Source: Acutalibacteraceae bacterium
GTDB taxonomy: Bacteria > Bacillota > Clostridia > Oscillospirales > Acutalibacteraceae
Assembly: GCA_045604105.1 (NCBI GenBank)
Contig: JAZUNJ010000024.1
Span: 44,956-108,955, forward strand
DNA: 64,000 nt
Direction: 5' to 3'
Shown: positions 13,844 through 61,174 of the stretch, piece after piece
Numbering within the stretch: position 1 is the stretch's first letter
Layout: the number at the start of each line of letters is the position of its first letter
Translations under genes and position numbers: made by a program
The notes under the pieces: generated by a model
What the model saw: the letters and a program-made list of their open reading frames with translations, nothing else
The model's database searches: none
Told to the model about the DNA's origin: nothing

Positions 13844-13894
13844 AGTGTGATGAATATATATCATAAAAAGACAGTTTCAAAAAAGGGTGACAGC

Positions 13895-14509
13895 ATGAAG
13901 AAAACGGCAGTGGCCATTATCTGCATAAGCCTTGTTACAGCCATGCTTACGGGCTGCAGCAAGGATGAATTTATGGGAATAAGCAGATTCACGGATAACA
14001 TGAATTCAATTTCGGCTGACGGAGAAGGAATAAGCCTTTCGTCATATCTTATTTATAACGGCACATATTATCTTCCCTTTGATGAAGACAGGGAAAGTGT
14101 TGTCATGGCACTGAAAGAGGGCGAGAGCGGCCATATTGACGAAATCAGAGTAACTATTTCCAAAGCTGATGAAAATGGTAATGAAAAGCCCGTAACAGAA
14201 AAGGGAAAGGCTCTTTTTCTGGAAGCCTTTATTAAAGCTGTCAGAGCATATTCATATTTCACCCCGGAAGAAGCAGAAGAAATTATAAAGGATATGAAGA
14301 TGAATTATCTTTCTGCTTTCGAAAGTGAAGGTGAAGTGACGCTTAAAAAAGAAAACTATTACTTCGTTTATTATTCAGTCGATATTGCAAGCACACTCAT
14401 GATATTCAACACGCACCTTCACAGCATTGAAAAAACAGAAAAGCCTGAAAGCAAGCCATTTTTCGGTAACACGACTAATATAAGAACAGAAACAGTACCT
14501 CTCAGGTGA
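13895..14509 (+). CDS. Lipoprotein of unknown function
   Basis: Signal peptide with lipobox (MKKTAVAIICISLVTAMLTGC|SKDE). I recognise no family. Confidence 0.6.
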   Translation: MKKTAVAIICISLVTAMLTGCSKDEFMGISRFTDNMNSISADGEGISLSSYLIYNGTYYLPFDEDRESVVMALKEGESGHIDEIRVTISKADENGNEKPVTEKGKALFLEAFIKAVRAYSYFTPEEAEEIIKDMKMNYLSAFESEGEVTLKKENYYFVYYSVDIASTLMIFNTHLHSIEKTEKPESKPFFGNTTNIRTETVPLR

Positions 14510-18980: not shown

Positions 18981-20645
18981 ATGAAGAAGATTATTTCTGT
19001 TGTTCTGGCATTGGTTATTGCTTTTTCGTGCACTGTGACAGCCTTTGCCGGTATTGATCAGAATGCAACAAAAAGTACTGTTCCTGTTATCCGAATTTCC
19101 GGCGACGGTGACGCTCTTTATAACAGTGAGGGCGAAAAAGTTATGCATTTCAGAGGACTTCTCGAAAACAATGAGGATGACGACGATGATGATAACAGCG
19201 GAATTTATGAATCCATTGCAAATGTTCTTCTGCCCTTCCTCATTGAAGGTGTAGTATTTGACCAGTGGGATAATTATTACAATAACCTTCAGAAGGAAAT
19301 CGGCGACCTTTTCGGTGATGCACTTCTTGACAAAAACGGTGACCCCGTTAACGGAACAGGTCTTCCCCAAAACAGACTTGACGAAATGGAATACAACAAA
19401 AAAACAGACAAGGGCGCAGACAGAGGCTATTATAGATACAATGACTATTGGTTCCGTTATGACTGGCGTCTGGATCCCCTTTACACAGCTGATTTGTTTG
19501 ATGATTATGTCAGGAGCATCAAGACTGCGACAGGTGCAGACAAGGTTGCAATCATTTCAACCTGCCTTGGCACAAATGTTGTAACTGCATATGTTGCAAA
19601 ATACGGTCTTGATGATATTCACGGTATTACCTTTGACGGCGGTGTTGCTTACGGTGCTGAAATTCTCAGTGAAACAATCAGTGGTAAGTTTCAGCTCGAC
19701 GGCAATGCAATAGAAAGAGTTCTCATTGACTGCGCTAACTATGATCTTTTTGATGTAGGTAGCTTTGTTCTTGCAACTGTTGATCTTCTTACGTCAAGTG
19801 GCGCACTTGACGCTGTTAAGGGTGTTACCAAGGAATATATCTATTATAAGGTAATTGAGGGCGTAACCTCAGCCCTTGCTCTTTCGACCTTCTTCACATG
19901 GCCTAACTATTGGGCAGCTGTTACTGCTGAGGATTATGAAACTGCAATTGAGTATGTTTTCGGCGAAGAGGGCAGTGAAAAGTATAATGAATACGCAGGT
20001 CTCATTGAAAAGCTTGATGCATACGATGAGCTTGTACGTCAGCACATCCCTGAGATTATGCAGAGCATCAAGGATGCAGAGGTAAATCTCGGTATCATGG
20101 CAAAGTACGGCAGCCAGATGATTCCCGTGTGTGAGTCGTCAGACATGATTTCAGACCAGATTGCGTCTGTTCACAGAGCTTCCTACGGTGCAACAACCTC
20201 AACTGTTTATGAGCCTCTGCCCGAGGATTATATTGCCAGCAGGATTGAGGAGGGCTTCGGAAAATACATTTCACCCGATAAGCAGATTGATGCTTCCACC
20301 TGCATGTTCCCTGATTACACTTGGTTCTATAAGGGCGCAACTCACTCAAACTGGACAAGCTATGAAATGAAGATTATGTATGATGTTGCAACAGCAGACA
20401 GACAGCTCACCGTTGACGATTTTGAGTGGGGACAGTTTATTGTTTATGATAATGACACTGACACCGCTTATAAAATGGATGAGAACAACTGCCACACAGA
20501 AGCCTGGGAGGCTGACAAGGAGCAGGACGCTCCCAATACTCCCTATGCAAAGCTTTTCGTCTTCATCAAATCAGTTATTAACTGGTTCAGGGAGCTGTTC
20601 AGAATCCTTTCAGATAAGTTCGCAGCAAAGGAACCCACAGTATAA
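18981..20645 (+). CDS. Secreted LCAT-like alpha/beta-hydrolase-fold protein with C-terminal amphipathic tail
   Basis: Signal peptide MKKIISVVLALVIAFSCTVTAFAG. FRYDWRLDP...KVAIISTCLGTNVVTAYV aligns to the LCAT/PDAT family YDWRL and nucleophile-elbow region (from memory). The C-terminus is KLFVFIKSVINWFRELFRIL. Confidence 0.6.
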   Translation: MKKIISVVLALVIAFSCTVTAFAGIDQNATKSTVPVIRISGDGDALYNSEGEKVMHFRGLLENNEDDDDDDNSGIYESIANVLLPFLIEGVVFDQWDNYYNNLQKEIGDLFGDALLDKNGDPVNGTGLPQNRLDEMEYNKKTDKGADRGYYRYNDYWFRYDWRLDPLYTADLFDDYVRSIKTATGADKVAIISTCLGTNVVTAYVAKYGLDDIHGITFDGGVAYGAEILSETISGKFQLDGNAIERVLIDCANYDLFDVGSFVLATVDLLTSSGALDAVKGVTKEYIYYKVIEGVTSALALSTFFTWPNYWAAVTAEDYETAIEYVFGEEGSEKYNEYAGLIEKLDAYDELVRQHIPEIMQSIKDAEVNLGIMAKYGSQMIPVCESSDMISDQIASVHRASYGATTSTVYEPLPEDYIASRIEEGFGKYISPDKQIDASTCMFPDYTWFYKGATHSNWTSYEMKIMYDVATADRQLTVDDFEWGQFIVYDNDTDTAYKMDENNCHTEAWEADKEQDAPNTPYAKLFVFIKSVINWFRELFRILSDKFAAKEPTV

Positions 20646-25318: not shown

Positions 25319-26578
25319 ATGAAGAGACTTAAATCGGCAATTTTATTCGTTTCATTGTTTATATCGTTAGCAGCGATTCTGTGCTTTAGTGCAAGTGCTG
25401 CTGAATGGAAGGATTTGGGCAACTTAAAAAGTAATTATGACAAAGACACAGGCGTAATGGTAATAAAGGGTGAAAACTCAACTATAAATCCTCACGACTT
25501 TGGTGTTTTACCAATGGCAGATGCCGAACAGTTAGCAAATGAGCTTAAGGAAGAAGACGGCTCGGGTGTTAATTGGGGTGATGATGACGGTTTGGAAGCT
25601 GACCGTGACGAGAATGAATTTGCCCTTGCTGATGCGGATGCATCAAGAGCAAAAATAGTTATTATCGAGGACAGCATTGTTAAACTTGAAACTTTAAGCC
25701 TTTCACATTTTGAAAGTGCTGAAGTTATAATCCTGCCTGAAAGCATTACAGAAATTCCCGTGGGAGCTTTTCATCGTTTGGAAAATCTTAAAACTGTTGT
25801 ACTTTCGTCAAAGACAACAAAGATTGATGATTATGCATTTTACGGATGTAAAAATCTTAAAACAATCAACTTCCCTTCAACTTTAAAATATGTTGGAAGA
25901 AGAGCTTTCTTCAAATGTAACATTGATCATATAGAAATTCCTGATACCATTAAAACAGTTAAAGAAGGCAATAAGGCTATTCCTGATAATCTTAAATCAG
26001 TTGAAATTACAGGGGTAAGTGACGGTTTCGTTACATTGAAATGGAACAAGGTTAAGGATGCTAATGGTTACAGAGTGTTCGTGCGTAAAAACGGCAAATG
26101 GAAAAAGATAGTCGATGTGTTCAAACAGGAGTATTACAACATTAAAACAGAACCTAACAAGAAATATACTTTTGCTGTAAGACCGTTTAATGCTCTTGAT
26201 CTCAATTGTCAAACGAAAAATTCTGTAATAATTAATGTAAGTTACTCAAAGCTTGTTTTTGCAAAGAAATATGTAAAGCTCCCCTCTGTTACAACTGCGC
26301 CGGCAAAGCCCGAATTCAAGCTCGAAAGCAAACAAAAGGGTAAGGTGTCAATCAAGTGGGATAATGTTGCAGGTGAAACCGGCTATCAGGTATGGTACTC
26401 AACAAAGTCAAATAAGAATTTTAAAAAGATTGCAAACTACAAATCAAATGTTGTTTCTGCAACAAAAACGGGACTGACAAGCGGTAAAACTTACTACTTC
26501 AAAGTAAGAGCGTATAAAAAGACAGCTAACGGTTATGTTTACAGTAGCTGGCAGCCTAAATCAATAAAAGTTAAATAA
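25319..26578 (+). CDS. Secreted surface protein: BspA-type LRR region plus two fibronectin-type-III-like domains
   Basis: RBS aaggagg and signal peptide (...CFSASA|AEW). LRR_5-like units are present (IPVGAFHRLENLKTVVLSSKTTKIDDYAFYGCKNLKTINFP). Two FN3-like units are present (FVTLKWNKVKDANGYRVFVRKNGKWKK; VSIKWDNVAGETGYQVWYS...GKTYYFKVRAYKK). Confidence 0.75.
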   Translation: MKRLKSAILFVSLFISLAAILCFSASAAEWKDLGNLKSNYDKDTGVMVIKGENSTINPHDFGVLPMADAEQLANELKEEDGSGVNWGDDDGLEADRDENEFALADADASRAKIVIIEDSIVKLETLSLSHFESAEVIILPESITEIPVGAFHRLENLKTVVLSSKTTKIDDYAFYGCKNLKTINFPSTLKYVGRRAFFKCNIDHIEIPDTIKTVKEGNKAIPDNLKSVEITGVSDGFVTLKWNKVKDANGYRVFVRKNGKWKKIVDVFKQEYYNIKTEPNKKYTFAVRPFNALDLNCQTKNSVIINVSYSKLVFAKKYVKLPSVTTAPAKPEFKLESKQKGKVSIKWDNVAGETGYQVWYSTKSNKNFKKIANYKSNVVSATKTGLTSGKTYYFKVRAYKKTANGYVYSSWQPKSIKVK

Positions 26579-39496: not shown

Positions 39497-40825
39497 ATGA
39501 AAAACAGAATTTTATGCTTGCTTTTATCTTTTGTTCTAATATTCTCCGCCTTTGCAGTAATTGAGCCTTCCATGTGGGCATCAGCTGCAACAAAGGAAGA
39601 GCTGCAGGACAAAATTGATGAGCTTGACGATGAAATTGCAGCAAACAGAAAAAAGCTCAACAGCCTGAAAAATGACCAGGCCAAGAAAAAAGAGTATCTT
39701 GAAACTCTTGAAAAGCAGATTGAAACCGTTGAAGCAAAAGCAACAAATATTCAGACTCAGATTCAGAAAATCGATAATGAAATTGAAGAGCTCAACAGGG
39801 AAATCAAGCAGATTACCCGTGAAATCAATCAAACAGAAAAGGACATTATCGAAACTGAAAACAATATTACTTCATCAAGCGACCTTCTTGCGGCAAAGCT
39901 TCGCAGTGCCTATATGAACGGCAATGAATCCACCCTCAAAATTCTTATGGGTGCCGATTCTCTTGCAAGCTTCCTCACAAGGCTCGAAATGATGAAAAGA
40001 ACATCGGAAAACGACAAAAAGGTTATCGATGATTTCAAGCAGCAGGTTATTGATTTAAGAAAAGCCAAATTAAAGCTTGAGGATAACAAAAAGGCCCTTG
40101 ACGAAAAAAAGGCAGTGCAGGTTGAGAAAAAGGAAGCACTGGAGGTAAAGCAGAAGGAATATAACAAAACTGTTGAGTCTCTTGAGGGTCAGTATGTTGA
40201 AATAGAAAAGTATATTGAAGACCTTGACAAATCAAGTGCTGCTTATAAGCAGTATATCAAGGAGCTTCAGGACGAGAAGGCTGCAGCTGATGCTGAAATT
40301 GACAGAATTCTCAAGGAATACTATGCAACAAGCCATCAGACCACGCTTCCTGCAGCAAATAATGACCCTAACGGCGGAGGCTCGGTGGGCGGCACTGCAG
40401 GTCCCGGTTATGTTTCAGGCGAAAGCTGGGCATGGCCTCTCGGCAGTCAGTCCTGCTATATCAGCAGTCCCTACGGCTACAGAAGCGCCTCAATTTCCGG
40501 ATGGTCTTATCATGGCGGTGTTGACATTTCAGGCAGCGGCTTCTACGGAAGAGCAATTTATGCAACAAGAAGCGGTAAGGTTATTTCAGCCGTTTCAAGT
40601 GACCGTGGCTACGGTGTTTATGTTATTATTGACCATGGTGATGGCTTCTCAAGCCTTTATGCCCACATGTCAACACGTTATGTTTCAACAGGTGACACCG
40701 TTTCAAAGGGACAGATGATAGGCAGAGCCGGCAGCAGCGGTAACTCAACAGGTCCTCACCTTCATTTCGAGGTCCGTTATTACGGCCAGAAGCAGGATCC
40801 GATGAAGTATGTAAGAAAGCCGTAA
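39497..40825 (+). CDS. Coiled-coil M23 peptidoglycan metalloendopeptidase (EnvC/PcsB-like partner of FtsEX)
   Basis: Signal peptide, a ~250-aa coiled coil, then an M23 domain with intact metal ligands (HGGVDISG ... GSSGNSTGPHLHFEV). Confidence 0.85.
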   Translation: MKNRILCLLLSFVLIFSAFAVIEPSMWASAATKEELQDKIDELDDEIAANRKKLNSLKNDQAKKKEYLETLEKQIETVEAKATNIQTQIQKIDNEIEELNREIKQITREINQTEKDIIETENNITSSSDLLAAKLRSAYMNGNESTLKILMGADSLASFLTRLEMMKRTSENDKKVIDDFKQQVIDLRKAKLKLEDNKKALDEKKAVQVEKKEALEVKQKEYNKTVESLEGQYVEIEKYIEDLDKSSAAYKQYIKELQDEKAAADAEIDRILKEYYATSHQTTLPAANNDPNGGGSVGGTAGPGYVSGESWAWPLGSQSCYISSPYGYRSASISGWSYHGGVDISGSGFYGRAIYATRSGKVISAVSSDRGYGVYVIIDHGDGFSSLYAHMSTRYVSTGDTVSKGQMIGRAGSSGNSTGPHLHFEVRYYGQKQDPMKYVRKP

Positions 40826-49292: not shown

Positions 49293-52200
49293 TCAGTTGA
49301 AAAGGTTTTTAAACCATTCAATGATCTTGTTGAACCATTCAATAATTCTCTGGAAGAAGGCGATGAGACCGTTAGGTGCAATACCTTCAGATGTGAGAAT
49401 ATCTTCAAAGTTCGTATCAAGGAACTGAGCAAGGAGATTACCGATAGTCTGCTCATTGGGATCGTCTGACATGCCGAGATCCTTGAGAATCTGCTGCCAC
49501 TGAGCATTGATATCCTTGAGGCCGCCGGCTGTTTCGCCAACACCGAGGTCTGCTCCGTAGAACAGATAGTAAAGTGTTGCGAGAGCCTTGTCCATGCCAA
49601 GGTATGTTTCTGTTGCGCATGTAGCAATTGTATCAAGAACACCTCTTACATACTTTTCGGCATCAGCAGTCATACCAAGATGATCTCTGAGGAGGCCGAG
49701 AAGTATTTCCTGATTATTTTCATGCATGATGAATGTAACAATCAGTCTCATTACAACTGTAACCATTTCAGTCTTTGCTTCTTCAGACTGATAAATCATT
49801 CTGTAAGCGGTCTTTCCGTTAGCTGATTCATAGGATACAAGAGTACCGATGGTAAGCTCGGAAACAGCGCTTGCATTGAGATTTTCAAATCTGTAGCCTG
49901 TTGCATCTGCAATCATGTCAAGAAGCATTTCGAAGAGCTTCTCGAATGTAAGAGTTGAAAGATCAAGGCCGATGATTTCGTAAAGGTCAATCTTAGCAAT
50001 GGGTTCAATTGCATCAAGAAGAGCGTAAACTGCATTGAGTGTATTCTTAACAACTGTGTCAACACCGTTTGAATTGATGAAGTAGATAAGGTTGGGAAGC
50101 ATTGAGAGAATCTCTTCAGCAGGATCAACCATAATTTCGTCTACTCTGTCAAGAAGGGGATTGAGAATTGAAGTAAGAAGTACATCACCGTTTGCCTCAA
50201 CAGCTGCATAGTAATCAGCAGGAGTCATAACGTTGTCGCATTCAAGAGTTTCAAGAAGAGGAATGATACCGTAAGCATAGCCTTCAGCACCTTCAAGCTT
50301 GATTGCGTCAACAGGACCGTTTGCACCTTCCTTGGCAAGAAGAGCGATATCTTCGTCAGCAAGTACCCACTTAAGAACGCCGTAGAGAGGTTCAAGAACA
50401 TCGCAAAGGCTTGCAACGAACTGAGCTCTGTCGTCTGTGAATTCGGGAACTTCAACCTTGGCAACTGCTGCGATATCTGCAATGCCGGCTGTCTTAAGAA
50501 CTGCGGCAATGTGCTTGCCAACGTTCTTGCCCTTAGCTTCAAGGTTAACAATTCCGTCAAGAACACCTGCGAGGGCGTCACGGATAGCAATTACGTTCTT
50601 GCTGTTGTAAAGTCCGCCGTTAATAAGCTCATCAATAAGCTCATTGAGGTTATCAATGCTTACACCGTTAATGTTGATACCGAGAAGGTAAATGATGTTG
50701 TTGATAAAATCACCAACATTGTCAGCAATGTACTGAGCCATTTCTTCAGTGTAAAGAGGACCGTATTTGTGGTTTGTGAGATAAAGCTTTGAGGATTCAA
50801 TTGCTGAGAATGCATAGCCTGTGTCTGCCTTATCAACAAACTTCCAATCGAATTCCTGAATGTCTGCAGGAACAACACCCTTATTGAAGATGTAATCGAT
50901 TACCTTATAAGCGTCTTCACCAACAAGGTCTTCAACGAAGTCTTTGTTTGCTGAATCTGCAAGGGTAAGAACGATGAGGTTAGCAAGAACTGTTACCATG
51001 TCGTACTTATCGAATTCATCAACATAAGTCATCTTCTTAGCAACGCTGATGCTTACTGAATCATATTCGTTAACCTGGCCGAGACCGAAGCCCACAAGAA
51101 CATTTTCAAGCTTTGTAAGGTCAAGACCTGTCATAAGTGAAACTGCCTGAAGGATATCCTTCATTGCAAGGTGGTCAAGGTCGATTGTTGCGCCCTTGCC
51201 CTCAATGTTCATAAGCTTCTGAAGGTTTACAAGCTCGTTGATGTCAACGTTCACACCTAATGCTTCAAGCTTTGTGAGAAGAACTGTGATAGCAGCAAGT
51301 GTGTTGTCAACCACTGCAGCAACACCGTTGGTGTTGAGGAAGTAGAGAAGGTTGGGAAGAAGTGCGATAACTTCTTCTACAGGATTTTCAAGAATTTCAT
51401 CAATGCGTGCTGCAAGAGAATTGAGAACGCCTGAAACGATTTCTTCTGTTGTTGTTTCAGCGCCGTAAACAGTGGGAAGGTTTTCACAGCCGAGTGCTTC
51501 AAGAAGAAGTGCAAGTCCTTCTGCATAACCCTGAGCACCGTTAATCACGATGAAGTCTACGGGAAGGTCGTTATCGTCAACATCCTTAACAAAGAATCTG
51601 TAATCGTTACCAAGAAGGAACCATTCAACAAGACCCTTAGCATAGGTGTTAAGAACATTTGCAAGCTCTGAAGCGAATGCGTCAACAGTTGTAATTCCTT
51701 CGGGAGCCTTGTAAGCCTTAAGACCCACAACATCAGCACCGAGAAGAACTCCTGCTGCGTCAAGAAGACCGTTGTCGATATCCTTAAGAAGATTTGCAAG
51801 AAGATCAACGACAGCCTGAAGGTTTTCGCTTGTGAATACGTTAACCTTGTCATTGAGAAGTGCGCTGAGTGAATCGTAGTTGCTGTCGATGAGAGAAGCA
51901 ACGAGGTCAGCAAGCTCAGGAAGGTTATCTGTCACATACTGTGCTGTTGCTTCGTTCCAGTTGTTGGGATAAGTAATAGCATACTTCATAGCATCAACTG
52001 TACCGTTGTCAGCAAGGGGATAGTCCCAATCGGGAACTGTATAGATGATTTCTACGTCTGCGAAAACATCCTTGAGAGCTGAGATGATTTCAGTGCCGAT
52101 CATTTCGTCAAGCTTTGCAGCGTTTTCTTCATCTTCAACTGCAACAAGAAGAGCAGCTGTCACAAGAACGGTAATCATATCGTGCTTGTCAAATTCGTCT

Positions 52201-55200
52201 GCATATTCCATCTTAGCAGTATAATCGAAGCTGCTTACTGAATCGTATGCAGTAACCTTACCAAGAGCAAAGCCTGTGAGTACATCCTTAAGAACTGTGA
52301 GATTAAGACCTGTAATTTCTGAAACGAGTTCAAGGATTGCTTCAATTGTAAGGTTGTCAAGGCCGATTGCGAGATCCTTTTCGATACCGCAGAGTTCTTC
52401 AATGTTAACAAGATCATCAAGAGTAATGTTAAGACCGAATGCCTTGAGCTTGAGAGCAAGGGCGTTGAATGCGCCTGCAAGGTTATTTACGGAAGCTGCA
52501 ACGCCGTTAGCGTTGAGGAAGTAAATAAGGTTGGGAAGAATGTCGAGAGCTCTTTCAACGGGAGAATTGAAGATTTCACCGATTCTTGCAGCAACTGACT
52601 TGAGAACTGCAACAACTACGTCTTCAGTCTTGAGGTTTTCAACACCGTAAACCTCGGGAAGGTTCTGACAGCCGAGAGCCTCAAGAAGGGGAGCAAGACC
52701 TTCAGCATAACCCTGAGCACCGTTGATTGTGATGATATCTGTGCCTTCAAGCTTTGTGCCCTTAGCGTCAACATCGTTAACGAAGAGCTTGATATCGTCG
52801 CCGAGAAGGAGCCATTCAACAACGCCCTTAGCATAGGTGTTAAGAACATTAGCAAGCTCAAGTGCGAATTCTTCAACAGTGTCAATTCCTTCGGGAGCCT
52901 TGTAAGCCTTGAGACCAACAAGATCAACCTTGAGAAGAACGCCGAGACTGAGAAGCTTATCGTCAACATTGCCAAGAAGCTTTGTGATAAGACCAACAAG
53001 GTCATCAAGAGTCTTTGAGGTGAATACGTCAACCTCTGACTTAAGAAGAGCTGCAAGTGAATCGTGGTCGCTTACCATGCCAACAACGATATCAACAAGA
53101 GCGGGAAGGTTGTCAGCAAGATACTGTGCCTTTTCTTCTGTCCAGTCGTTGGGATATGTGATTGCACTTTCAATTACTTCGATTGTACCTTCGTCATAGT
53201 TGATTTCACCGTTGAAGTAGTTGTAGTTGGGTTTAATATATTCAACGGGAGTGCTCTCGAATACTTCGTCAAGTGCTGAGATGATGTCAGTACCGATTGC
53301 CTTGTCAAGAGCTGCTGCGTTAGCTTCATCCTGAACAAAGATAAGAGCGATTGTAAGGATAATTGTAACAACGTCAGATTTTGCTGCGTCCATTCTGTAA
53401 ATGTAGTTGCCCTTTGTAATCTTACCTGTGCAGAAGTTTACAAGGTAATCTTCAACAACTGCAAAGTTGAATTCGGGAAGAACTGCTTCAAGAATTTCAA
53501 CAACATCAGCAAGTGAAAGCTCTTCAAGGTTAAGAACAAATTCAGTACCGTCTGCCTTCTTGAACTTGATAAGATCTGAAAGGCTTACGTTGAGACCGAA
53601 TGCCTGAAGCTTTGTAAGAAGAGCATTTACGGGAGCAAGAAGATTGCCGATTGCAACACCTGCGCCGTTTGCATTAAGGAAGTAGATAAGGTTGGGAAGA
53701 AGCTCAACAACTTCATCAACGGGCTTTTCAAGAATTTCGTCAACTCTTGCTGCAAGAGCACCGAGAACATTAGCAGTTGTTGCTTTTTCTGCGGTGGGAG
53801 CATCTGCACCGAGAGCTTCGAGAATGAGTGCAAGACCCTTTTCGTAGCCGTAGCCGCCGTTGATAACAATTGTATCGTTAAGGTCTGTCTTCTTAGCGAA
53901 TCTGTAGTCATCGCCGAAGAAGAGCCAGTTGATAAGACCGCCTGCATAGGTGTCAAGAACATTTGCAAGCTCTGCTGCGAATGCTTCTGTGAGTGTCTTA
54001 TCCTCGGTTGCAACGATTTCAGGTGCCTTATATGCCTTGAGACCGTTGATGTCAACATCAAGAAGTCTGCCGGCAGCTTCAATGAGGTTTGCATCAATAT
54101 CTTCAAGAAGACCTGTGATGAGACCAACAAGCTGATTGAGTGAATCAGCGGTAAGATAGCCGTTGAGAAGGTCTGAAAGAAGAGCTGAAACTGTTGCGGG
54201 AGCATCTGCCTTATCCTTATTGATAAGACCGATTACAAGGTCAGCAAGCTCGGGAAGGTTATCAGCGATATACTGTGCCTTTTCCTCAGTCCAGTCGTTG
54301 GGATACTCAAGTGCATAAAGAGTGTTGGGAAGGCCTGCGCCTGTTGCGATGTAAGCGTCAAGTGCTTCCTGTGAATCGAACCAGTAGTACCAGTTGGGTT
54401 CTGCATAATCAAATTCGCCAAGGTCAGCGAATACGCCTTCAAGCTTACTGATAATGTCAGTGCCGATAAGCTTGTCGAGTGCTGCAGCATTATTCGGCTT
54501 TGCACCCCATTCGAGAACGTATGAAAGAATTACTGTAAGAAGGTCATGTGCTTCGAAGTCATTATGGAATGCGCCCTTCTTCCATGTGCTGTTGAGAGTT
54601 GAAGCTGAATCATATTCAACACCGATGTGCTTACATACATCGTATACAAGTGTGCCGAGGAAATCGATATCAAGACCGAGAAGCTTATAAAGAAGGTCAA
54701 CAACAAAGTTGATATCAAGATGCTTAAGATCAATGTTAAGACCTGTGCTTTCAGTTGCAGTTTTAATCATTTCTGCAAGGTTGATATCGAAGAGAGGACG
54801 GATTGTGTCAAGCACTGCATAAACAGGAGTGAGGAGCTTGTCAACACCCTGTGAAAGTCCGTCGCTTGCGAGATAGTAGATAACACCGGGAATGCTGTCA
54901 AGCATATCCTTGATAGTGCTGTTGTACTTATTATTTGTGAGCCTTGCAAGTCTTGTAATAAGAGCATCAACAAGCTTTGCAAGTGCATCTTCATTTTCAC
55001 CAAGGGCAGTTACATTGTCACAGCCGAGAGCTTCAAGAAGGGGAACAATTGCATTGTCATAGCCCTTATAGCCCTGAAGTGTGATTGCACTGTCGATGAG
55101 AGTGAGATCCTTACCTGCAAAAATGAAGTCGATTGCAGGTCTGAAGGGAGCGAGAAGCTGAACAAGCTTTGCACCGAATGCTGCACCGTTGCCGTCTTCA

Positions 55201-58200
55201 AAGCCCCAGTTGTAATCGTCTGCAAGGTCCTTATACTGTGCAAACACTGCAAGGTCAATACCAAGCTCATCTTTAAGCAGAGCATTGATGTCGAATGCGG
55301 GAGCCTCGGCTTCGCCACCTTCTTCTGCAGTTTCAGTGTCACCTGCAAGAAGAGCGTTCAGGTCGAGACCTGCAAGGAGCTTTGCAAGAGCTGTGAGATT
55401 TGCATTTGAGTAAAGAGCATTGATTTTGCTTGCAAGCTCATCTTCAATGTCAAATGTTGATTCTGCATCTATGGTTTTGATGATGCCGCTTACAATAGCA
55501 TCAAGGTTGTCATAAAGGTATTCAGCCTTACCTTCTGTCCAGTCATTGTCATAGCTGAGATAGATTTCATCAGCAGGAGTCAGAGGTGTCTGAGTACCCT
55601 TTGAGCCGTCATACCAATAATATCCGCCAACGGGGTATTCGGTCTGGTTTGCAAGCTCAACAATTGCAGCAATTACATCGCCGACATCCATTTCGTCAAG
55701 ATTGAGATCTTCATAGATAACCTTCTTGAGACCGGCAATTGCTTCCTCGTCGGGAATTGTCTTGCCGTTGGCGTCTTTGATAGCTACACCGTTTTCATCC
55801 TTCTGAGTCATGAACAGACCAAGGAGGCTTGTAAGTGCTGCTTCATCCTTAACTGCGTTAAGAATGTATGAAAGAAGGTAATAGCCTACGCCTGCCTTGT
55901 CAGCAACGATTGTGTAAGCTTCACCTGCGTTAACGCCGGAATAGATAGCTGCTTTTCTTCCGGTTGAAACCTTTGTGAGTTTACCGAGAGTTGCAAGAGT
56001 TGTCTGGTCGATTGCGGGAAGCTCAAGACCGAAGTTTGAAAGCAGTGAGTTAATACCGCCTGCAAACATGCTTTCGGGAAGAAGAGCACCTTCGTCACTT
56101 GTGATAAGAATATCACCAAGGAAGATATCAACGCCGTCACTGACAACTGTTACAGCACCGCCGCCGATAACACCGGCCTTGTACCATACCTTTGTTGTAA
56201 GGTTGTTAAGAAGAGGCTTAACCATACCGAATGCAAGAGCATAAACAAGGTTGGGAAGAATTCCGAGAATTGTGTCAACGGGCTTTTCACCGAGAGTTTC
56301 AAGGAATGTGAAAATAGGCTTGAGAATTTCTTTAAGAACATAAGCAATGTCATCGTTGCCTTCAATTGATGCCACCGGGGTGTAAGGAACACCGAGAAGC
56401 TCATAAATGGGAACAAGAGTGTTAGCATAACCGGGGTTACCGTATGCACCAAGATCAAGTGTTACGTTAAGAACAAGTGCATGAGCAAACTGAAGAATAC
56501 TGTCGGGTTCCCAGTTAATGTTTGTGATAAGAGCTGTCAGAAGAGGCTTGATACCTTCTGCTGCATCAGCAAATACTTCATAGAACTTAGCTTCTCTTTC
56601 TTCAAGATCTTCAATTTCATCAATACCCCAGACGAACTTGAGTTTGCCTGTTTCTGTGTCAAGAATGTGAACTGATGTCCATGAATCGTCATAACCACCT
56701 GCTGCCTTAAGCATAGCAACTGTTTCGGGATATTTTGTTTCATCAAGAACACCTGCGAGAAGGTCAGGATAAAGCTCAAGACCTGTTTCTTTACATACAG
56801 TGTAGAAGTCCTTATTGTATGTAACCTTCATACCTGATGCTTCAGAGGGAAGGTTTGAGAAAGCCTTTGTGAACTCATTGAGAACAAGAGGATAAAGCAG
56901 CTGAATAAATGTGTTGATGAAGTCATCCTTAAACAGGAAGCCCTTTACAGTGTCTGAAAGCAAGGCACCGATGTCAAGAGCGCTTCCGTCTTCGTTGATA
57001 AGTGAGCCGACAAGGTCACTTGTGATGATAGTGTCAAGGTCATTTACAAGGTTAAGAAGATTCTGCTCTGTAACTTCGTAAGCATCCTTTCTGACTTCAT
57101 CATTGGGATAAACGTCACGGTCTTCATAATCGATAACTGTCTGCTCATAATCAGCAAAACCGAAGGTTGTAGCATATCTGCAGTACTCATAATAAATTTC
57201 ATCAAAGTATGCATTATATGTGTTCATTGTGTCTGCGCTGATATATGAACCCTTACCTTCATTGTTGAGGTAATCCTGGATACCGTCGCTCTTACCCTTA
57301 TTGTTGGTTGCATCATCATCATAGTTTTCTGCATGATAAAGCTTATCCCAACCGTCTTCGAGGGGAACAACAACAGCTTTAAGCTTGAGATATGACATCA
57401 TGTCAAGAGTAGTGGGTCTTTCAAGCTCGTTGTAAACAGCATCAACAGCATTTACCTGAGCTGTGAAACGGTCTGCAAGAAGTCTGTAAAGACCGTCGAG
57501 CATGTTGTCAGCATCAGTTCTGATCTGACCGAGAAGAAGATCTCTTCTGGCGTAAGTGAGTGTGTTATAGAACTCGTCAAGGCCTAATTTCTGTTCCTTG
57601 ACTTCCTGAATCTTTGCATAAACATCTTCTGTTTTGAGGCCAACAAAAGACTTGTGAGCATTTTCTGCAAAGTAAAGAACATACTCATTGATTTCGCACT
57701 TCAGTTCTTCCTGAAGGTCAAGAAGATATACATAGCCTTCACTGTAAACAGCATTGATTACCTGAAGCTCGCCGCCTCTTGCATTTGAACGGTATGTACC
57801 GATTGCGTTGATGTAACCTGAAATTTCTGAATAGAGGCTCTGCTGTTCAACTGTTTCATAGTCCTTGTAAGTATCCTTGTAAGTATTATAGAAGTTGTCT
57901 GCAGCATTTCTGCTGTCGTTAAGGTAGTATACCTGATAGTTATCTGTGAAGTTGTAGAGATAGTTCATATCGATATCGCCGTTGTTAACGAAATAGTCGA
58001 GAACTGTACCACCTGCTACAAGTGCATCGTAGTAGCCCATGAAGGTAAGGTAATCAGCTTCCATCTTTGCATGTGTGGCTGAACCCTTTTCACCAAAAGC
58101 ACCCCAGTTATTTGCACCGCCGCCTTCACCCCAGCTGAATACACCGTATGAGGGGTTAGCTGCTATAAAATTCTTATAGTTTTCAACTATGGGAAGGAAT

Positions 58201-59249
58201 TCCTGCATATCTTTTGCAGACTGAATTGAAGCCTTCTGTGTTGCAACTGCTGTTGCAAATGAACCGAAGAGCTTGCTATAGGTTGAAGCGCCGCCGACAT
58301 AAGTCTGTGTGCTTGCAACAGCTGCATCAAAATCTGAAAGGAAGGTGTCGATTGTGCCGTTATTTACCTTTGCAAGAAGATCATCAAAGCTTACTGATGT
58401 GAAAGCATTGATAGCTGCTGCATGAGCATCAACGGTTGTTTTTGCTGCTGTGTTTGAATTCTGATTATAAGCGGGTGCTGAGGGAGGAGTCTGCACATAG
58501 TTGTGGAAACGCCAATAGGTTGTCAGACCGGATTTCGAAGTATAATAGCCTCTGGTCATTGCAAAAACATATTTAACACCGAGATCAATTGTTGATTCAA
58601 CATTTGTGTATGCACCGATTGAATCAAGATAGCCCTTGTATGCTTCATCCTTGGCTTTGATAATGAGTGTGTTAGTGTGGTTTGCGGGAGTTGTTGAAGA
58701 AGAGGGATTACTTAAAAGGGGCTTCCTCTTTTCCTCATAGTCGTCGTGCTGTCTTGCCTTTGAGTCGTCAAGAACAAGCTTGAGGAAGTACACTACAGGC
58801 TCAGTCATTGTACAACCGTATTTGGGAAGCTTTTTCTCAAATTCAGTGTACATATGCGTTGCACTTGTGCATGTTCTTGTTGCTGCGTCACCTGAACCGG
58901 TCTTTCCGATTTCTTCAGAAGCCATAATTGCTTCATGGAAGAGAGCAACAAGATTTTTAAGTGTTGCGTACTGATGGTATGTGTTAACTGTGAGTGTTGT
59001 TGTGTTAACAATGTTATTGGTGCTGCCGGCACTACCTGTTGCAGCGGTGTTGCCGTAAGAACCAAAATCTTTGTTATACACCTGCGCAAGAACATCTGAG
59101 CTGTTCTTGAGTGCATTGGCGAAAGTTTCAAACTTTGTGTCATCCGCCGCTGCGGCTGTAAAGCTGATAGTGCCAAAGCAAACGCTCATGCTTGACATAA
59201 TCATAATTACAGCAAGCAGAACGCTTAAAAGTTTTTTGGTAACTTTCAT
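49293..59249 (-). CDS. Giant secreted repeat protein (3318 aa), six ~400-aa modules, unknown function
   Basis: RBS ggagga and signal peptide (MKVTKKLLSVLLAVIMIMSSMSVCFGTISFTAAAA). The reading frame is uninterrupted. Repeated cores are YPNDWTEEKAQY(I/L)ADNLP, GLKAYKAPE, ING(A/G)xGYxxGLxxLLEALGC and LLPNLIYFLNANG. The C-terminal tail is IAFFQRIIEWFNKIIEWFKNLFN. A strong terminator lies downstream. Confidence 0.85.
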   Translation of the reverse strand: MKVTKKLLSVLLAVIMIMSSMSVCFGTISFTAAAADDTKFETFANALKNSSDVLAQVYNKDFGSYGNTAATGSAGSTNNIVNTTTLTVNTYHQYATLKNLVALFHEAIMASEEIGKTGSGDAATRTCTSATHMYTEFEKKLPKYGCTMTEPVVYFLKLVLDDSKARQHDDYEEKRKPLLSNPSSSTTPANHTNTLIIKAKDEAYKGYLDSIGAYTNVESTIDLGVKYVFAMTRGYYTSKSGLTTYWRFHNYVQTPPSAPAYNQNSNTAAKTTVDAHAAAINAFTSVSFDDLLAKVNNGTIDTFLSDFDAAVASTQTYVGGASTYSKLFGSFATAVATQKASIQSAKDMQEFLPIVENYKNFIAANPSYGVFSWGEGGGANNWGAFGEKGSATHAKMEADYLTFMGYYDALVAGGTVLDYFVNNGDIDMNYLYNFTDNYQVYYLNDSRNAADNFYNTYKDTYKDYETVEQQSLYSEISGYINAIGTYRSNARGGELQVINAVYSEGYVYLLDLQEELKCEINEYVLYFAENAHKSFVGLKTEDVYAKIQEVKEQKLGLDEFYNTLTYARRDLLLGQIRTDADNMLDGLYRLLADRFTAQVNAVDAVYNELERPTTLDMMSYLKLKAVVVPLEDGWDKLYHAENYDDDATNNKGKSDGIQDYLNNEGKGSYISADTMNTYNAYFDEIYYEYCRYATTFGFADYEQTVIDYEDRDVYPNDEVRKDAYEVTEQNLLNLVNDLDTIITSDLVGSLINEDGSALDIGALLSDTVKGFLFKDDFINTFIQLLYPLVLNEFTKAFSNLPSEASGMKVTYNKDFYTVCKETGLELYPDLLAGVLDETKYPETVAMLKAAGGYDDSWTSVHILDTETGKLKFVWGIDEIEDLEEREAKFYEVFADAAEGIKPLLTALITNINWEPDSILQFAHALVLNVTLDLGAYGNPGYANTLVPIYELLGVPYTPVASIEGNDDIAYVLKEILKPIFTFLETLGEKPVDTILGILPNLVYALAFGMVKPLLNNLTTKVWYKAGVIGGGAVTVVSDGVDIFLGDILITSDEGALLPESMFAGGINSLLSNFGLELPAIDQTTLATLGKLTKVSTGRKAAIYSGVNAGEAYTIVADKAGVGYYLLSYILNAVKDEAALTSLLGLFMTQKDENGVAIKDANGKTIPDEEAIAGLKKVIYEDLNLDEMDVGDVIAAIVELANQTEYPVGGYYWYDGSKGTQTPLTPADEIYLSYDNDWTEGKAEYLYDNLDAIVSGIIKTIDAESTFDIEDELASKINALYSNANLTALAKLLAGLDLNALLAGDTETAEEGGEAEAPAFDINALLKDELGIDLAVFAQYKDLADDYNWGFEDGNGAAFGAKLVQLLAPFRPAIDFIFAGKDLTLIDSAITLQGYKGYDNAIVPLLEALGCDNVTALGENEDALAKLVDALITRLARLTNNKYNSTIKDMLDSIPGVIYYLASDGLSQGVDKLLTPVYAVLDTIRPLFDINLAEMIKTATESTGLNIDLKHLDINFVVDLLYKLLGLDIDFLGTLVYDVCKHIGVEYDSASTLNSTWKKGAFHNDFEAHDLLTVILSYVLEWGAKPNNAAALDKLIGTDIISKLEGVFADLGEFDYAEPNWYYWFDSQEALDAYIATGAGLPNTLYALEYPNDWTEEKAQYIADNLPELADLVIGLINKDKADAPATVSALLSDLLNGYLTADSLNQLVGLITGLLEDIDANLIEAAGRLLDVDINGLKAYKAPEIVATEDKTLTEAFAAELANVLDTYAGGLINWLFFGDDYRFAKKTDLNDTIVINGGYGYEKGLALILEALGADAPTAEKATTANVLGALAARVDEILEKPVDEVVELLPNLIYFLNANGAGVAIGNLLAPVNALLTKLQAFGLNVSLSDLIKFKKADGTEFVLNLEELSLADVVEILEAVLPEFNFAVVEDYLVNFCTGKITKGNYIYRMDAAKSDVVTIILTIALIFVQDEANAAALDKAIGTDIISALDEVFESTPVEYIKPNYNYFNGEINYDEGTIEVIESAITYPNDWTEEKAQYLADNLPALVDIVVGMVSDHDSLAALLKSEVDVFTSKTLDDLVGLITKLLGNVDDKLLSLGVLLKVDLVGLKAYKAPEGIDTVEEFALELANVLNTYAKGVVEWLLLGDDIKLFVNDVDAKGTKLEGTDIITINGAQGYAEGLAPLLEALGCQNLPEVYGVENLKTEDVVVAVLKSVAARIGEIFNSPVERALDILPNLIYFLNANGVAASVNNLAGAFNALALKLKAFGLNITLDDLVNIEELCGIEKDLAIGLDNLTIEAILELVSEITGLNLTVLKDVLTGFALGKVTAYDSVSSFDYTAKMEYADEFDKHDMITVLVTAALLVAVEDEENAAKLDEMIGTEIISALKDVFADVEIIYTVPDWDYPLADNGTVDAMKYAITYPNNWNEATAQYVTDNLPELADLVASLIDSNYDSLSALLNDKVNVFTSENLQAVVDLLANLLKDIDNGLLDAAGVLLGADVVGLKAYKAPEGITTVDAFASELANVLNTYAKGLVEWFLLGNDYRFFVKDVDDNDLPVDFIVINGAQGYAEGLALLLEALGCENLPTVYGAETTTEEIVSGVLNSLAARIDEILENPVEEVIALLPNLLYFLNTNGVAAVVDNTLAAITVLLTKLEALGVNVDINELVNLQKLMNIEGKGATIDLDHLAMKDILQAVSLMTGLDLTKLENVLVGFGLGQVNEYDSVSISVAKKMTYVDEFDKYDMVTVLANLIVLTLADSANKDFVEDLVGEDAYKVIDYIFNKGVVPADIQEFDWKFVDKADTGYAFSAIESSKLYLTNHKYGPLYTEEMAQYIADNVGDFINNIIYLLGININGVSIDNLNELIDELINGGLYNSKNVIAIRDALAGVLDGIVNLEAKGKNVGKHIAAVLKTAGIADIAAVAKVEVPEFTDDRAQFVASLCDVLEPLYGVLKWVLADEDIALLAKEGANGPVDAIKLEGAEGYAYGIIPLLETLECDNVMTPADYYAAVEANGDVLLTSILNPLLDRVDEIMVDPAEEILSMLPNLIYFINSNGVDTVVKNTLNAVYALLDAIEPIAKIDLYEIIGLDLSTLTFEKLFEMLLDMIADATGYRFENLNASAVSELTIGTLVSYESANGKTAYRMIYQSEEAKTEMVTVVMRLIVTFIMHENNQEILLGLLRDHLGMTADAEKYVRGVLDTIATCATETYLGMDKALATLYYLFYGADLGVGETAGGLKDINAQWQQILKDLGMSDDPNEQTIGNLLAQFLDTNFEDILTSEGIAPNGLIAFFQRIIEWFNKIIEWFKNLFN
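49600..57000 (-). repeat. Six tandem ~1.16-1.37 kb coding modules inside the giant gene
   Basis: LPN(L)(I/V)Y-encoding segments recur at about 50085, 51350, 52525, 53685, 54885 and 56255. (Y)PNDWTE-type segments recur at about 50760, 51960, 53150, 54295 and 55545. Outer boundaries are approximate. Confidence 0.8.
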
Positions 59250-59728: not shown

Positions 59729-61174
59729 ATGAAGTCTGTTATGAAGAAAACACTTGCACTGCTTCTTGCACTGGTTCTCAGCTTCAGCGTAACAACTGTT
59801 GCTCTTGGTGCACTTGGTACGGGCGGTGTTATGAAAAGCTACTCGGCAACCTCAATTGAGGATTTCCATGCCGAAGAATTTGAGGGGAGAATAGGAAGAA
59901 TAATCTTCCTCAACCTTTCTGAAGAAGATTTCCCTGATAATGTTACATATGTTGCTGAAATGGACCTTTCCGCAAGTGAGGACACAGGTACCGTAACAGC
60001 AAAGCTTGTTCTTAGCCAGAACATTGCAGGCATTAATAACCTTGATATGTATATCGGTGCCTATGACGGTGTAATTGCCCCTGCAGACTGCTCCTATCTT
60101 TTTGCAGAAACAGGCGTCAGAGAGGTTATTGGCCTTGAAAATTTTGACACCTCAGGTGTAACAAGCATGAAGGCTATGTTCAAAAACTGCGGACTTCGTG
60201 AGTTCAATCTTGATGATTTCGGCGATACCTCCAATGTAAGAGACATGTCCTTTATGTTCAACGATTGCTGGTATCTTGAAAAAATCACAGCCCAAAGCTT
60301 TGATACTTCATCCGTTTCACACTTTGAGCATATGTTTGCAGGCTGTTCAGCTCTTACTGAATTCAAGGTGAAAAACCTTGACCTTTCATCTGCATCTGAC
60401 CTTAATTACATGTTCTATGAATGTGTTCTTCTCACTGAGGCTGACCTCAGCACATGGAAAAACACGTCAGGCATGGTAAGCGTAAATGCTTTCAGAAACT
60501 GTCCTGCACTCGAAACCGTAAAGCTCAGCAACTGGGATCTTTCATCACTTGTAACCCTTGACGGCATTTTTGCTGCCTGTGCTGCTCTTACTGATGTGTA
60601 TCTTTGCGGTGTTACTCAGCCGACCGGCTTTTCATCATCATGGGATAATCCTCTCAAGGGTACAGACGGAATTAATGTGCACACAGATGATATCGATTTC
60701 ACCTCAACACCTCTTTGGAAGGACTGCTTTGGTAAGGGTATTGACGTGAATGTTGTTTATGAGCTCAATGATACTGCTGATATGGTAAATATTGACTTCG
60801 AAAGAAACGAAGCAGTTGAGTATTACACTGTAACAGTAAACGGCGATGTGAGAACCATCTATGGCGGCTCATCGATGAACATCAGAAAAGGTACCGAAAT
60901 TGCAATTGATATCAAAGCTTCAGAAGAAGCAAATCCCATGTCACTGAATGTGAACGGCGGTATATTCGATTTCGGCACATCCTTCACTGTTGAATGTGAC
61001 ACCACCGTTTCAATTCAGACCTACCACGACACAACACCCATCGTGCCCGACAAGGCAGAGCAGACTCTCACCGGTGCAATTTTTGCAATCAGAGATTTCA
61101 TAAACAGAATCATCGATATTCTTCAGGGCTTCTTCGGAAGATTCATGCCCTGGATACCGGAAGTTGAAGAATAA
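59729..61174 (+). CDS. Secreted BspA-family/DUF285-type leucine-rich-repeat surface protein with C-terminal amphipathic tail
   Basis: RBS gggagg and signal peptide. DUF285-like repeats are present (FDTSGVTSMKAMFKNC; GDTSNVRDMSFMFNDC; FDTSSVSHFEHMFAGC; LSSASDLNYMFYEC). The C-terminus is AIFAIRDFINRIIDILQGFFGRF. Confidence 0.75.
   Translation: MKSVMKKTLALLLALVLSFSVTTVALGALGTGGVMKSYSATSIEDFHAEEFEGRIGRIIFLNLSEEDFPDNVTYVAEMDLSASEDTGTVTAKLVLSQNIAGINNLDMYIGAYDGVIAPADCSYLFAETGVREVIGLENFDTSGVTSMKAMFKNCGLREFNLDDFGDTSNVRDMSFMFNDCWYLEKITAQSFDTSSVSHFEHMFAGCSALTEFKVKNLDLSSASDLNYMFYECVLLTEADLSTWKNTSGMVSVNAFRNCPALETVKLSNWDLSSLVTLDGIFAACAALTDVYLCGVTQPTGFSSSWDNPLKGTDGINVHTDDIDFTSTPLWKDCFGKGIDVNVVYELNDTADMVNIDFERNEAVEYYTVTVNGDVRTIYGGSSMNIRKGTEIAIDIKASEEANPMSLNVNGGIFDFGTSFTVECDTTVSIQTYHDTTPIVPDKAEQTLTGAIFAIRDFINRIIDILQGFFGRFMPWIPEVEE

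Follow-up and report, generated by a model that had tools for sequence, protein, structure and literature searches.

Three otherwise unrelated exported proteins, encoded within a 64,000 bp stretch of the genome of an Acutalibacteraceae bacterium (contig C24, positions 44956-108955; hereafter "the window"), carry at or very near their C-termini a short amphipathic helix rich in phenylalanine. These three tails are members of a large class of portable C-terminal helices that is restricted to one lineage, and such helices most likely act as in-plane (monotopic) membrane anchors. The anatomy of the tails, their enrichment on exported proteins, their C-terminal position, their conservation, their interchange with known anchors and their taxonomic distribution are direct observations. 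The assembly is 2.39 Mb in 58 contigs with 41.8% G+C, and the features concerned are the following (window coordinates).

49293-59249, minus strand: giant exported protein of 3318 amino acids with N-terminal signal peptide MKVTKKLLSVLLAVIMIMSSMSVCFG
49296-49370, minus strand: tail of the giant, GLIAFFQRIIEWFNKIIEWFKNLFN, an amphipathic helix with the stop codon immediately after it
49371-49388, minus strand: conserved EGIAPN hinge of the giant, immediately preceding the helix
18981-20645, plus strand: exported alpha/beta-hydrolase of 554 amino acids, counted from Met17 of the open frame, with signal peptide MKKIISVVLALVIAFSCTVTAFA
20544-20621, plus strand: tail of the hydrolase, YAKLFVFIKSVINWFRELFRILSDKF, followed by the seven residues AAKEPTV (20622-20642)
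59729-61174, plus strand: exported DUF285/BspA-type repeat protein of 481 amino acids with signal peptide MKSVMKKTLALLLALVLSFSVTTVALG
61073-61153, plus strand: tail of this DUF285/PARCEL leucine-rich-repeat protein, GAIFAIRDFINRIIDILQGFFGRFMPW, followed by the six residues IPEVEE (61154-61171)

An earlier note on this DNA had reported a shared tail at the extreme C-termini of these proteins, and translation confirms the positions of all three; "extreme" is true of the giant only, since AAKEPTV and IPEVEE trail the tails of the hydrolase and the DUF285 protein. The sequence pattern given there, F-x2-(I/F)-I-x-(W/I)-(F/L)-x2-(L/F)-F, matches the giant alone when taken literally, and its relaxed hydrophobic form fits all three. 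The other descriptive claims hold. All three proteins pass our signal peptide heuristic; none has a hydrophobic segment besides the signal peptide, the tails being too polar to span a membrane; and the bodies, which fall into three separate BLAST clusters, are indeed unrelated. In Pfam the hydrolase body matches Abhydrolase_1 and the DUF285 protein (identical to the 481-amino-acid database entry P0124) matches DUF285/LRR_5, while a scan of the whole 3318-residue giant finds no Pfam domain.

What the three tails have in common is an amphipathic, Phe/Ile/Trp-rich, weakly cationic helix and no fixed motif. Hydrophobic-moment analysis shows an alpha-helical amphipathic periodicity, with best-window moments of 0.64-0.78 in the three tails against a genome mean of 0.37-0.40. 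The tail of the giant has a heptad-like pattern, FFxxIIx/WFxxIIx/WFKNLF (in the actual sequence FFQRIIE/WFNKIIE/WFKNLF), and its best window has a moment of 0.72 and six aromatics in 18 residues. The 19-residue Kyte-Doolittle maxima are 0.84 for the giant, 1.21 for the hydrolase and 1.07 for the DUF285 protein, all below the mean of 1.9 that was used as the cut-off for a membrane-spanning segment.

Such tails are numerous in this genome. Gene calling was crude, keeping the longest non-overlapping open reading frames (2140 genes, 92% coding), and signal peptides were assigned by an in-house heuristic that separates 304 signal-peptide proteins from 1683 others. A motif-free measure, which asks for a best 18-residue hydrophobic moment of at least 0.55 and at least four aromatics within the last 35 residues, finds amphipathic aromatic C-termini on 26 of the 304 signal-peptide proteins and on 5 of the 1683 others (odds ratio 31, p=2e-17). 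The relaxed hydrophobic version of the motif, scored over the last 40 residues, occurs on 28 and 10, respectively (odds ratio 17, p=5e-16). At exported C-termini its density is 7-12 times that of protein interiors. The proteome scan proposed in the earlier note, run here on this genome, thus finds the motif enriched on signal-peptide proteins and not equally frequent at the C-termini of cytoplasmic ones.

Curation by hand gave 48 tail proteins, 39 with plain tails and nine with tails flanked by cysteines, and the signal peptide heuristic is positive for every one of them. They make up about one in six exported proteins, and when their last 45 residues are trimmed and the remainder is clustered by BLAST they form 19 unrelated families. 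The largest of these comprises 15 hydrolase paralogues, every one of which has the tail, and the giant clusters with proteins of 2471 and 10047 amino acids. Pfam matches among the bodies include a GDSL lipase, a GH3 glycosidase, a metallophosphoesterase, an S9-type esterase, a PepSY protein, alpha/beta-hydrolases and leucine-rich-repeat proteins. The amphipathic tail is by far the most frequent C-terminal device of this genome, which also has two or three LPETG-type sortase substrates and several membrane-spanning anchors. A dubious lipobox is present in one of the 48 tail proteins and a lipobox in 22 of the 304 signal-peptide proteins, a trend in counts only.

The terminal position of the tails is nearly absolute. 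When a profile built from the tails was run on full-length proteins, matches of about 11 bits or more ended 0-16 residues from the C-terminus with three exceptions, one internal and two N-terminal, which score 11-14 bits. These exceptions lie outside the window, at C5:10460-11473, C5:51860-52810 and C5:38289-38879; the N-terminal look-alike helices are MATIIQIILRFFTSVIAFFTRTFRF and MIFMWERILAFFMSIIAFFAGLF, and the internal one, SFIQKLIDLLKRILRFFFG, stands directly after the signal peptide of a 196-residue protein. They may be the same membrane-binding device at other positions.

The 19-residue Kyte-Doolittle mean stays below 1.9 in 47 of the 48 tails. Relative to the proteome, the helix is enriched in Phe (4.0-fold), Ile (2.1-fold) and Trp (2.3-fold), is poor in Gly (0.3-fold) and contains virtually no Pro; Ile, Phe, Leu and Val form its hydrophobic face, Phe and Trp lie at the boundary, and Lys, Arg, Asn, Asp and Glu form its polar face. 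Its net charge is +1.4, and the 15 residues upstream of it constitute an Asp/Glu/Pro-enriched linker with a net charge of -2.2. On the Wimley-White interfacial scale, the best 18-residue window of the plain tails has a median free energy of -3.0 kcal/mol, compared with +0.7 for other exported proteins, +2.1 for non-exported proteins and -5.5 for the Escherichia coli PBP5 anchor. No column is invariant or nearly so among 25 aligned tails (mean column identity 27%), and the ends beyond the helix are varied and often acidic (IPEVEE and AAKEPTV are examples), with no consistent terminal basic cluster. An AlphaFold2 model of the hydrolase built with 68 homologues places the tail helix at residues 521-547 with a predicted local distance difference test score (pLDDT) of 87-89. 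For the last 260 residues of the giant the mean pLDDT is 53, so that only the secondary structure is usable; it has a helix at 236-258 after a break. A Foldseek comparison of the hydrolase model with the PDB gave weak alpha/beta-hydrolase and lipase matches (best E 7e-3) and is uninformative on the tail.

In all three window proteins the tail is conserved among relatives, whose source labels are Acutalibacteraceae, Ruminococcaceae or Clostridia metagenome-assembled genomes. The same type of helix ends 118 of the 120 listed homologues of the hydrolase (53-84% identity), the two exceptions being a fragment and a protein cut short inside the helix, and at least 90% of the 68 homologues that were aligned have the tail tryptophan. 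Homologues of the giant, down to 35% identity, end in APNG followed by FFQKIxxWFxKIxxWFKNLF; nowhere in the final 70 residues is conservation higher than at APNG. Counting from the C-terminus, the block at -30 to -21 in this family has a consensus fraction of 0.82 and an entropy of 0.72, whereas the linker at -70 to -41 has values of 0.39-0.58 and 1.65-2.41; the tail blocks are thus conserved like the folded part and clearly above the linker that precedes them. In the DUF285 protein the tail (LQGFFGRFMPW) is retained by close orthologues only (48-78% identity), and distant DUF285 proteins terminate in a dockerin, in S-layer-homology modules or in Ig-like domains. A further distant ending resembles a tail of the Bacteroidota type IX secretion system (T9SS).

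Homologues of the hydrolase from other genera of the same family (25-31% identity) have five kinds of ending, namely

1, an amphipathic tail
2, an xxTG motif followed by a hydrophobic segment and KKK (sortase type)
3, a plain membrane-spanning segment
4, a dockerin
5, a stop directly after the catalytic domain

The tail is therefore one of several interchangeable modules, the others being known surface-attachment devices. The sortase-type signals of the second kind, found on the homologues at loci L009, L028 and L006 (genomes G033, G048 and G074), read SPDTG, PQTG and ADTG, which is unlike LPXTG; a hydrophobic segment and then KKK or RKK come after every one of them.

Multi-copy use of the tail is limited to this genus and a few sister genera. 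In whole-genome searches with a 27-position tail profile, the present genome has 29 matches, the other 18 genomes of the genus have 9-21 each (E≤0.1), and 12 genomes from other families of the order have zero or one. Of 80 further genera in the same family, about 7 reach 4-10 matches (E≤0.01) and most have none. Across the class, none of 300 genomes has more than one match, one being the background level, and one genome of that set (G216) gave no match on re-search. In an RpoB tree of 28 genomes, one region of the family holds most of the tail-rich genera, patchily and with low support; because of that low support and one mis-picked sequence, we do not claim a single origin. A search of 1.84 billion representative proteins with a profile of the giant-type tail returned 146 clusters (E≤0.001), of which 137 end within six residues of the C-terminus. 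Among the 105 matches with a body of more than 100 residues, 88 are relatives of the giant and 17 are unrelated to it; nine of these 17 are signal-peptide proteins with a C-terminal tail, and in the remaining eight the matches are internal and repeated.

The earlier note saw in the tail a likely signal for sorting, anchoring or docking, and named an in-plane anchor and a recognition tag for a module scaffold as examples. The amphipathic periodicity, the lack of membrane-spanning hydrophobicity, the enrichment on signal-peptide proteins, the terminal position, the conservation and the attachment modules that stand in its place in homologues all support the in-plane anchor; a scaffold tag or a signal read by an enzyme is not favored, because there is no invariant residue and no recurrent neighboring gene. 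The interfacial free energy of the tails also speaks for the anchor, as does the nature of the nearest profile matches among solved structures, PSM-alpha-3 and the Arl8 N-terminal helix, which are membrane-active amphipathic helices matched at weak E values. Membrane binding and retention on the cell are parts of the anchor reading that we infer. The protein would be exported by Sec and its N-terminal signal peptide removed, upon which the last 20-27 residues would emerge and fold into a helix with a Phe/Ile/Leu/Trp face opposite a Lys/Arg/Asn/Asp/Glu face. This helix would partition into the interface and lie parallel to the surface of the cytoplasmic membrane, in its outer leaflet, and the flexible acidic linker, enriched in Pro, Asp and Glu, would join it to the body, which would stay on the surface. 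No dedicated processing enzyme should be required; physical chemistry and not a recognition motif would be what counts.

The claim that such tails are undescribed agrees with our searches, in which no Pfam or NCBIfam model and no paper on them was found. Neither library has a model that matches any tail when whole proteins and isolated tails are scanned at E values up to 10; this includes the NCBIfam sorting-domain models, and Pfam Dockerin_1, the duplicated calcium-binding loop-helix, does not match them either. No description of such tails was found in the searchable literature. To our knowledge, C-terminal amphipathic anchors of the PBP5 type are known on one enzyme class; what is new here is a portable amphipathic anchor on about one in six exported proteins, giants included, expanded in a narrow lineage.

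The closest known system is by analogy the C-terminal anchor of E. coli PBP5/DacA (also present in PBP6 and DacD). In E. coli, the C-terminal 18 residues of PBP5 form a helix that tethers the enzyme to the inner membrane, on its outer face (PMC2909392). Like the tail proteins, PBP5 is exported by Sec with a cleaved signal peptide and ends in a short Phe/Ile/Trp-rich amphipathic helix that does not span the membrane; the PBP5 tail of E. coli K-12 resembles FFQKIINWFKELF of the present genome, and the tail profile aligns exactly on the DacA anchor. The score of that alignment is only 4.9 bits, which is not significant, so the likeness between the tails and PBP5 is physico-chemical and not demonstrable homology. 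The tails differ from the PBP5 anchor in being portable, since they occur on about 48 proteins of 19 families with unrelated bodies (proteins of 3318 and 10047 amino acids among them), in being usually longer (20-27 residues), in having an acidic linker before them and in being expanded only in a narrow lineage of Clostridia. None of the three window proteins, the alpha/beta-hydrolase, the DUF285 repeat protein and the giant that has no Pfam domain, has the body of an S11 DD-carboxypeptidase, so the tail proteins are only functional analogues of the PBP family. The genome also encodes its own DacA/PBP5 homologue (C24:116245-117390, 30% identical to that of E. coli), which has a less aromatic amphipathic end, RRITFTDIVRQFLKSLTKK, with an interfacial free energy of +1.5 kcal/mol, so that in this genome the Phe-rich tails are distinct from the classical PBP anchor.

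A second comparison is with the pestivirus Erns protein, whose C-terminal amphipathic helix is an in-plane anchor that prefers negatively charged lipids and balances retention with partial release (PMC4536213). Erns is likewise an exported protein with a C-terminal amphipathic helix, for which the tails would share the location in the plane of the membrane; it differs in being a single viral protein of eukaryotic hosts, with an anchor of about 60 residues unrelated in sequence.

Several points weigh against membrane anchoring. Homology to the PBP5 anchor is unsupported at 4.9 bits, and on average the tails are less membrane-avid per 18 residues than that anchor. The net charge is zero or negative in several of them, and whether a single helix could hold a protein of 3318 or 10047 amino acids is uncertain. 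In the hydrolase model the tail helix and linker have pLDDT values of 87-91, equal to those of the body, so that this helix might dock on the enzyme. The restricted phyletic distribution would also suit a lineage-specific partner, and the signal peptide calls come from a heuristic and the genes from a crude open reading frame caller.

The alternative that fares best is that the helices associate with one another, bundling as coiled coils or as cross-alpha stacks like those of phenol-soluble modulins (PSMs), with or without membrane contact, and so gather many different surface proteins together or link enzymes to the giant helical-repeat proteins. We regard this as unlikely but worth weighing. 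PSM-alpha-3 forms cross-alpha fibrils, and it is the best match to the tail profile among solved structures (E 0.07), the other being the N-terminal helix of Arl8; the two matches are weak (E about 0.07-0.4), and the matched segments are MEFVAKLFKFFKDLLGKF and IALFNKLLDWFKALF. Both, like the tails, are Phe-rich amphipathic helices, and both are membrane-active; but PSM-alpha-3 is a cytolytic peptide that occurs free and has no Sec signal, the Arl8 helix is cytosolic and N-terminal, and neither serves as the C-terminal module of an exported protein. The heptad-like repeat FFQRIIE/WFNKIIE/WFKNLF of the giant, the adjacency of tail genes to genes of the giant family in the window, and the possible weakness of a single helix as the anchor of a protein of 3000-10000 amino acids also speak for association. 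On the other side, the PSM match is short as well as weak (16 bits), and the tails are so diverse, with a mean column identity of 27% and no invariant position, that lipid binding fits them better than specific helix-helix pairing. Moreover, the interchange of the tails with sortase-type signals, membrane-spanning anchors and dockerins points to a tether on the cell, and self-association by itself would not supply one.

Quite unlikely, in our estimation, is a sorting signal read by lineage-specific machinery (a protease, a transpeptidase or an export/attachment system) that removes the tail or modifies it covalently, by analogy with LPXTG/sortase, PEP-CTERM/exosortase or the T9SS C-terminal domain. 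The tails do resemble the LPXTG and PEP-CTERM signals in being C-terminal on signal-peptide proteins, in occurring across unrelated bodies and in being lineage-restricted, and in hydrolase homologues the tail takes the place of sortase-type signals, that is, it sits at the position of known sorting signals. Its multi-copy use is sharply restricted (the genus and about 7 of 80 sister genera, with none of 300 class genomes having more than one). This distribution can be explained by the expansion of paralogue families that inherited the tail, as the 15 hydrolases that share it illustrate. The tripartite signals (LPXTG, PEP-CTERM, GlyGly-CTERM and others) combine a signature motif, a membrane-spanning helix and a basic cluster; the tails lack the first two and show no consistent basic cluster at their ends. 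No family recurs as a neighbor within three genes of the 48 tail genes, where only adjacent genes were considered; among the 207 genes that lie within that distance, only generic ABC and sugar-transporter families recur. The genome also has separate sortase substrates of LPETG type.

Very unlikely is a third alternative, in which each tail is a structural or working part of its own protein (in a lipase, for instance, a lid or a helix that binds the lipid substrate) and the families would resemble one another by convergence, without sharing a localization device. For it, the hydrolase model is no less confident in the helix and linker (pLDDT 87-91) than in the catalytic body, the tryptophan is nearly invariant in the hydrolase family and many tail bodies are lipase- or esterase-like. 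Against it, the carriers also include leucine-rich-repeat proteins, a GH3 glycosidase, a PepSY protein, phosphoesterases and all-helical giants, and the tails are terminal throughout behind a variable acidic linker, are dispensed with or replaced by other anchors in hydrolase homologues, and are nearly absent from non-exported proteins (5 of 1683).

A broader and speculative possibility, which we consider improbable, is that the tails are the address label of a lineage-specific surface-assembly system in gut bacteria of the Acutalibacteraceae type. The label would be recognized by a membrane factor, or would build a shared amphipathic layer, PSM-like or cross-alpha, that organizes dozens of enzymes around the giant helical-repeat proteins, and the variant clamped by Cys and His (see below) would be a metal-locked second version of it.

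If the preferred reading, a portable in-plane membrane anchor, is correct, abundant uncultured Clostridia of the gut and rumen would retain a large share of their surface proteome by means of a portable amphipathic helix, and lipases, glycosidases, phosphoesterases, adhesin-like repeat proteins and giants of 3000-10000 residues would all be held in this way. Such retention would be independent of sortase, lipidation, S-layer-homology domains and dockerins, and would add a class to the Gram-positive surface-anchoring mechanisms. Localization prediction would improve for proteins that are now labeled "secreted" or "hypothetical", a new Pfam or NCBIfam model would be warranted, and the tail could serve as a very short surface-display tag.

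The nine Cys-flanked tails are on exported proteins encoded outside the window. In these an aromatic amphipathic helix is clamped by Cys/His clusters, with the arrangement CxCxCH ... FFWKLF ... CxCG..HY (for example RCGCICHKDHWFMRFIYKIIRFFWKLFKISKTCDCGAVHY), and there is no Pfam or NCBIfam match to any of them. Judging from its residues, this appears to be a form of the anchor that is locked by metal or by disulfides. The genes are as follows.

C24:21845-32935, Cys-flanked tail protein
C43:104882-111508, Cys-flanked tail protein
C47:86195-93382, Cys-flanked tail protein
C12:59001-64361, Cys-flanked tail protein
C43:112818-114569, Cys-flanked tail protein
C43:111912-112679, Cys-flanked tail protein
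C26:8611-9831, Cys-flanked tail protein
C26:6590-6985, Cys-flanked tail protein
C24:4742-5158, Cys-flanked tail protein

Cys-rich repeats of the form C..G....Y.C..C ... H.D.(D/N).DG.CD.C lie directly upstream of both plain and Cys-flanked tails, in the C-terminal regions of C24:21845-32935, C12:59001-64361, C43:30015-33710, C13:71629-73206 and their relatives. The repeat units resemble a zinc ribbon followed by a calcium-loop-like motif, and they join carriers of both tail types in one BLAST cluster.

Within the window the tail is found on three of about six exported proteins. Those without it, whose identities were read by eye from the sequences, are a 419-residue protein with an FN3-like end (25319-26578), a 442-residue protein that looks like an M23-type peptidase (39497-40825) and a lipoprotein with a lipobox (13847-14509).

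Finally, alpha/beta-hydrolases normally have a G-x-S-x-G nucleophile elbow, and the window hydrolase has S-x-C-L-G at this position, the cysteine being Cys195 (counted from Met17; window positions 19563-19565). This cysteine and the glycine that follows it in the motif are invariant in all 68 aligned homologues, so the family may use a cysteine nucleophile.

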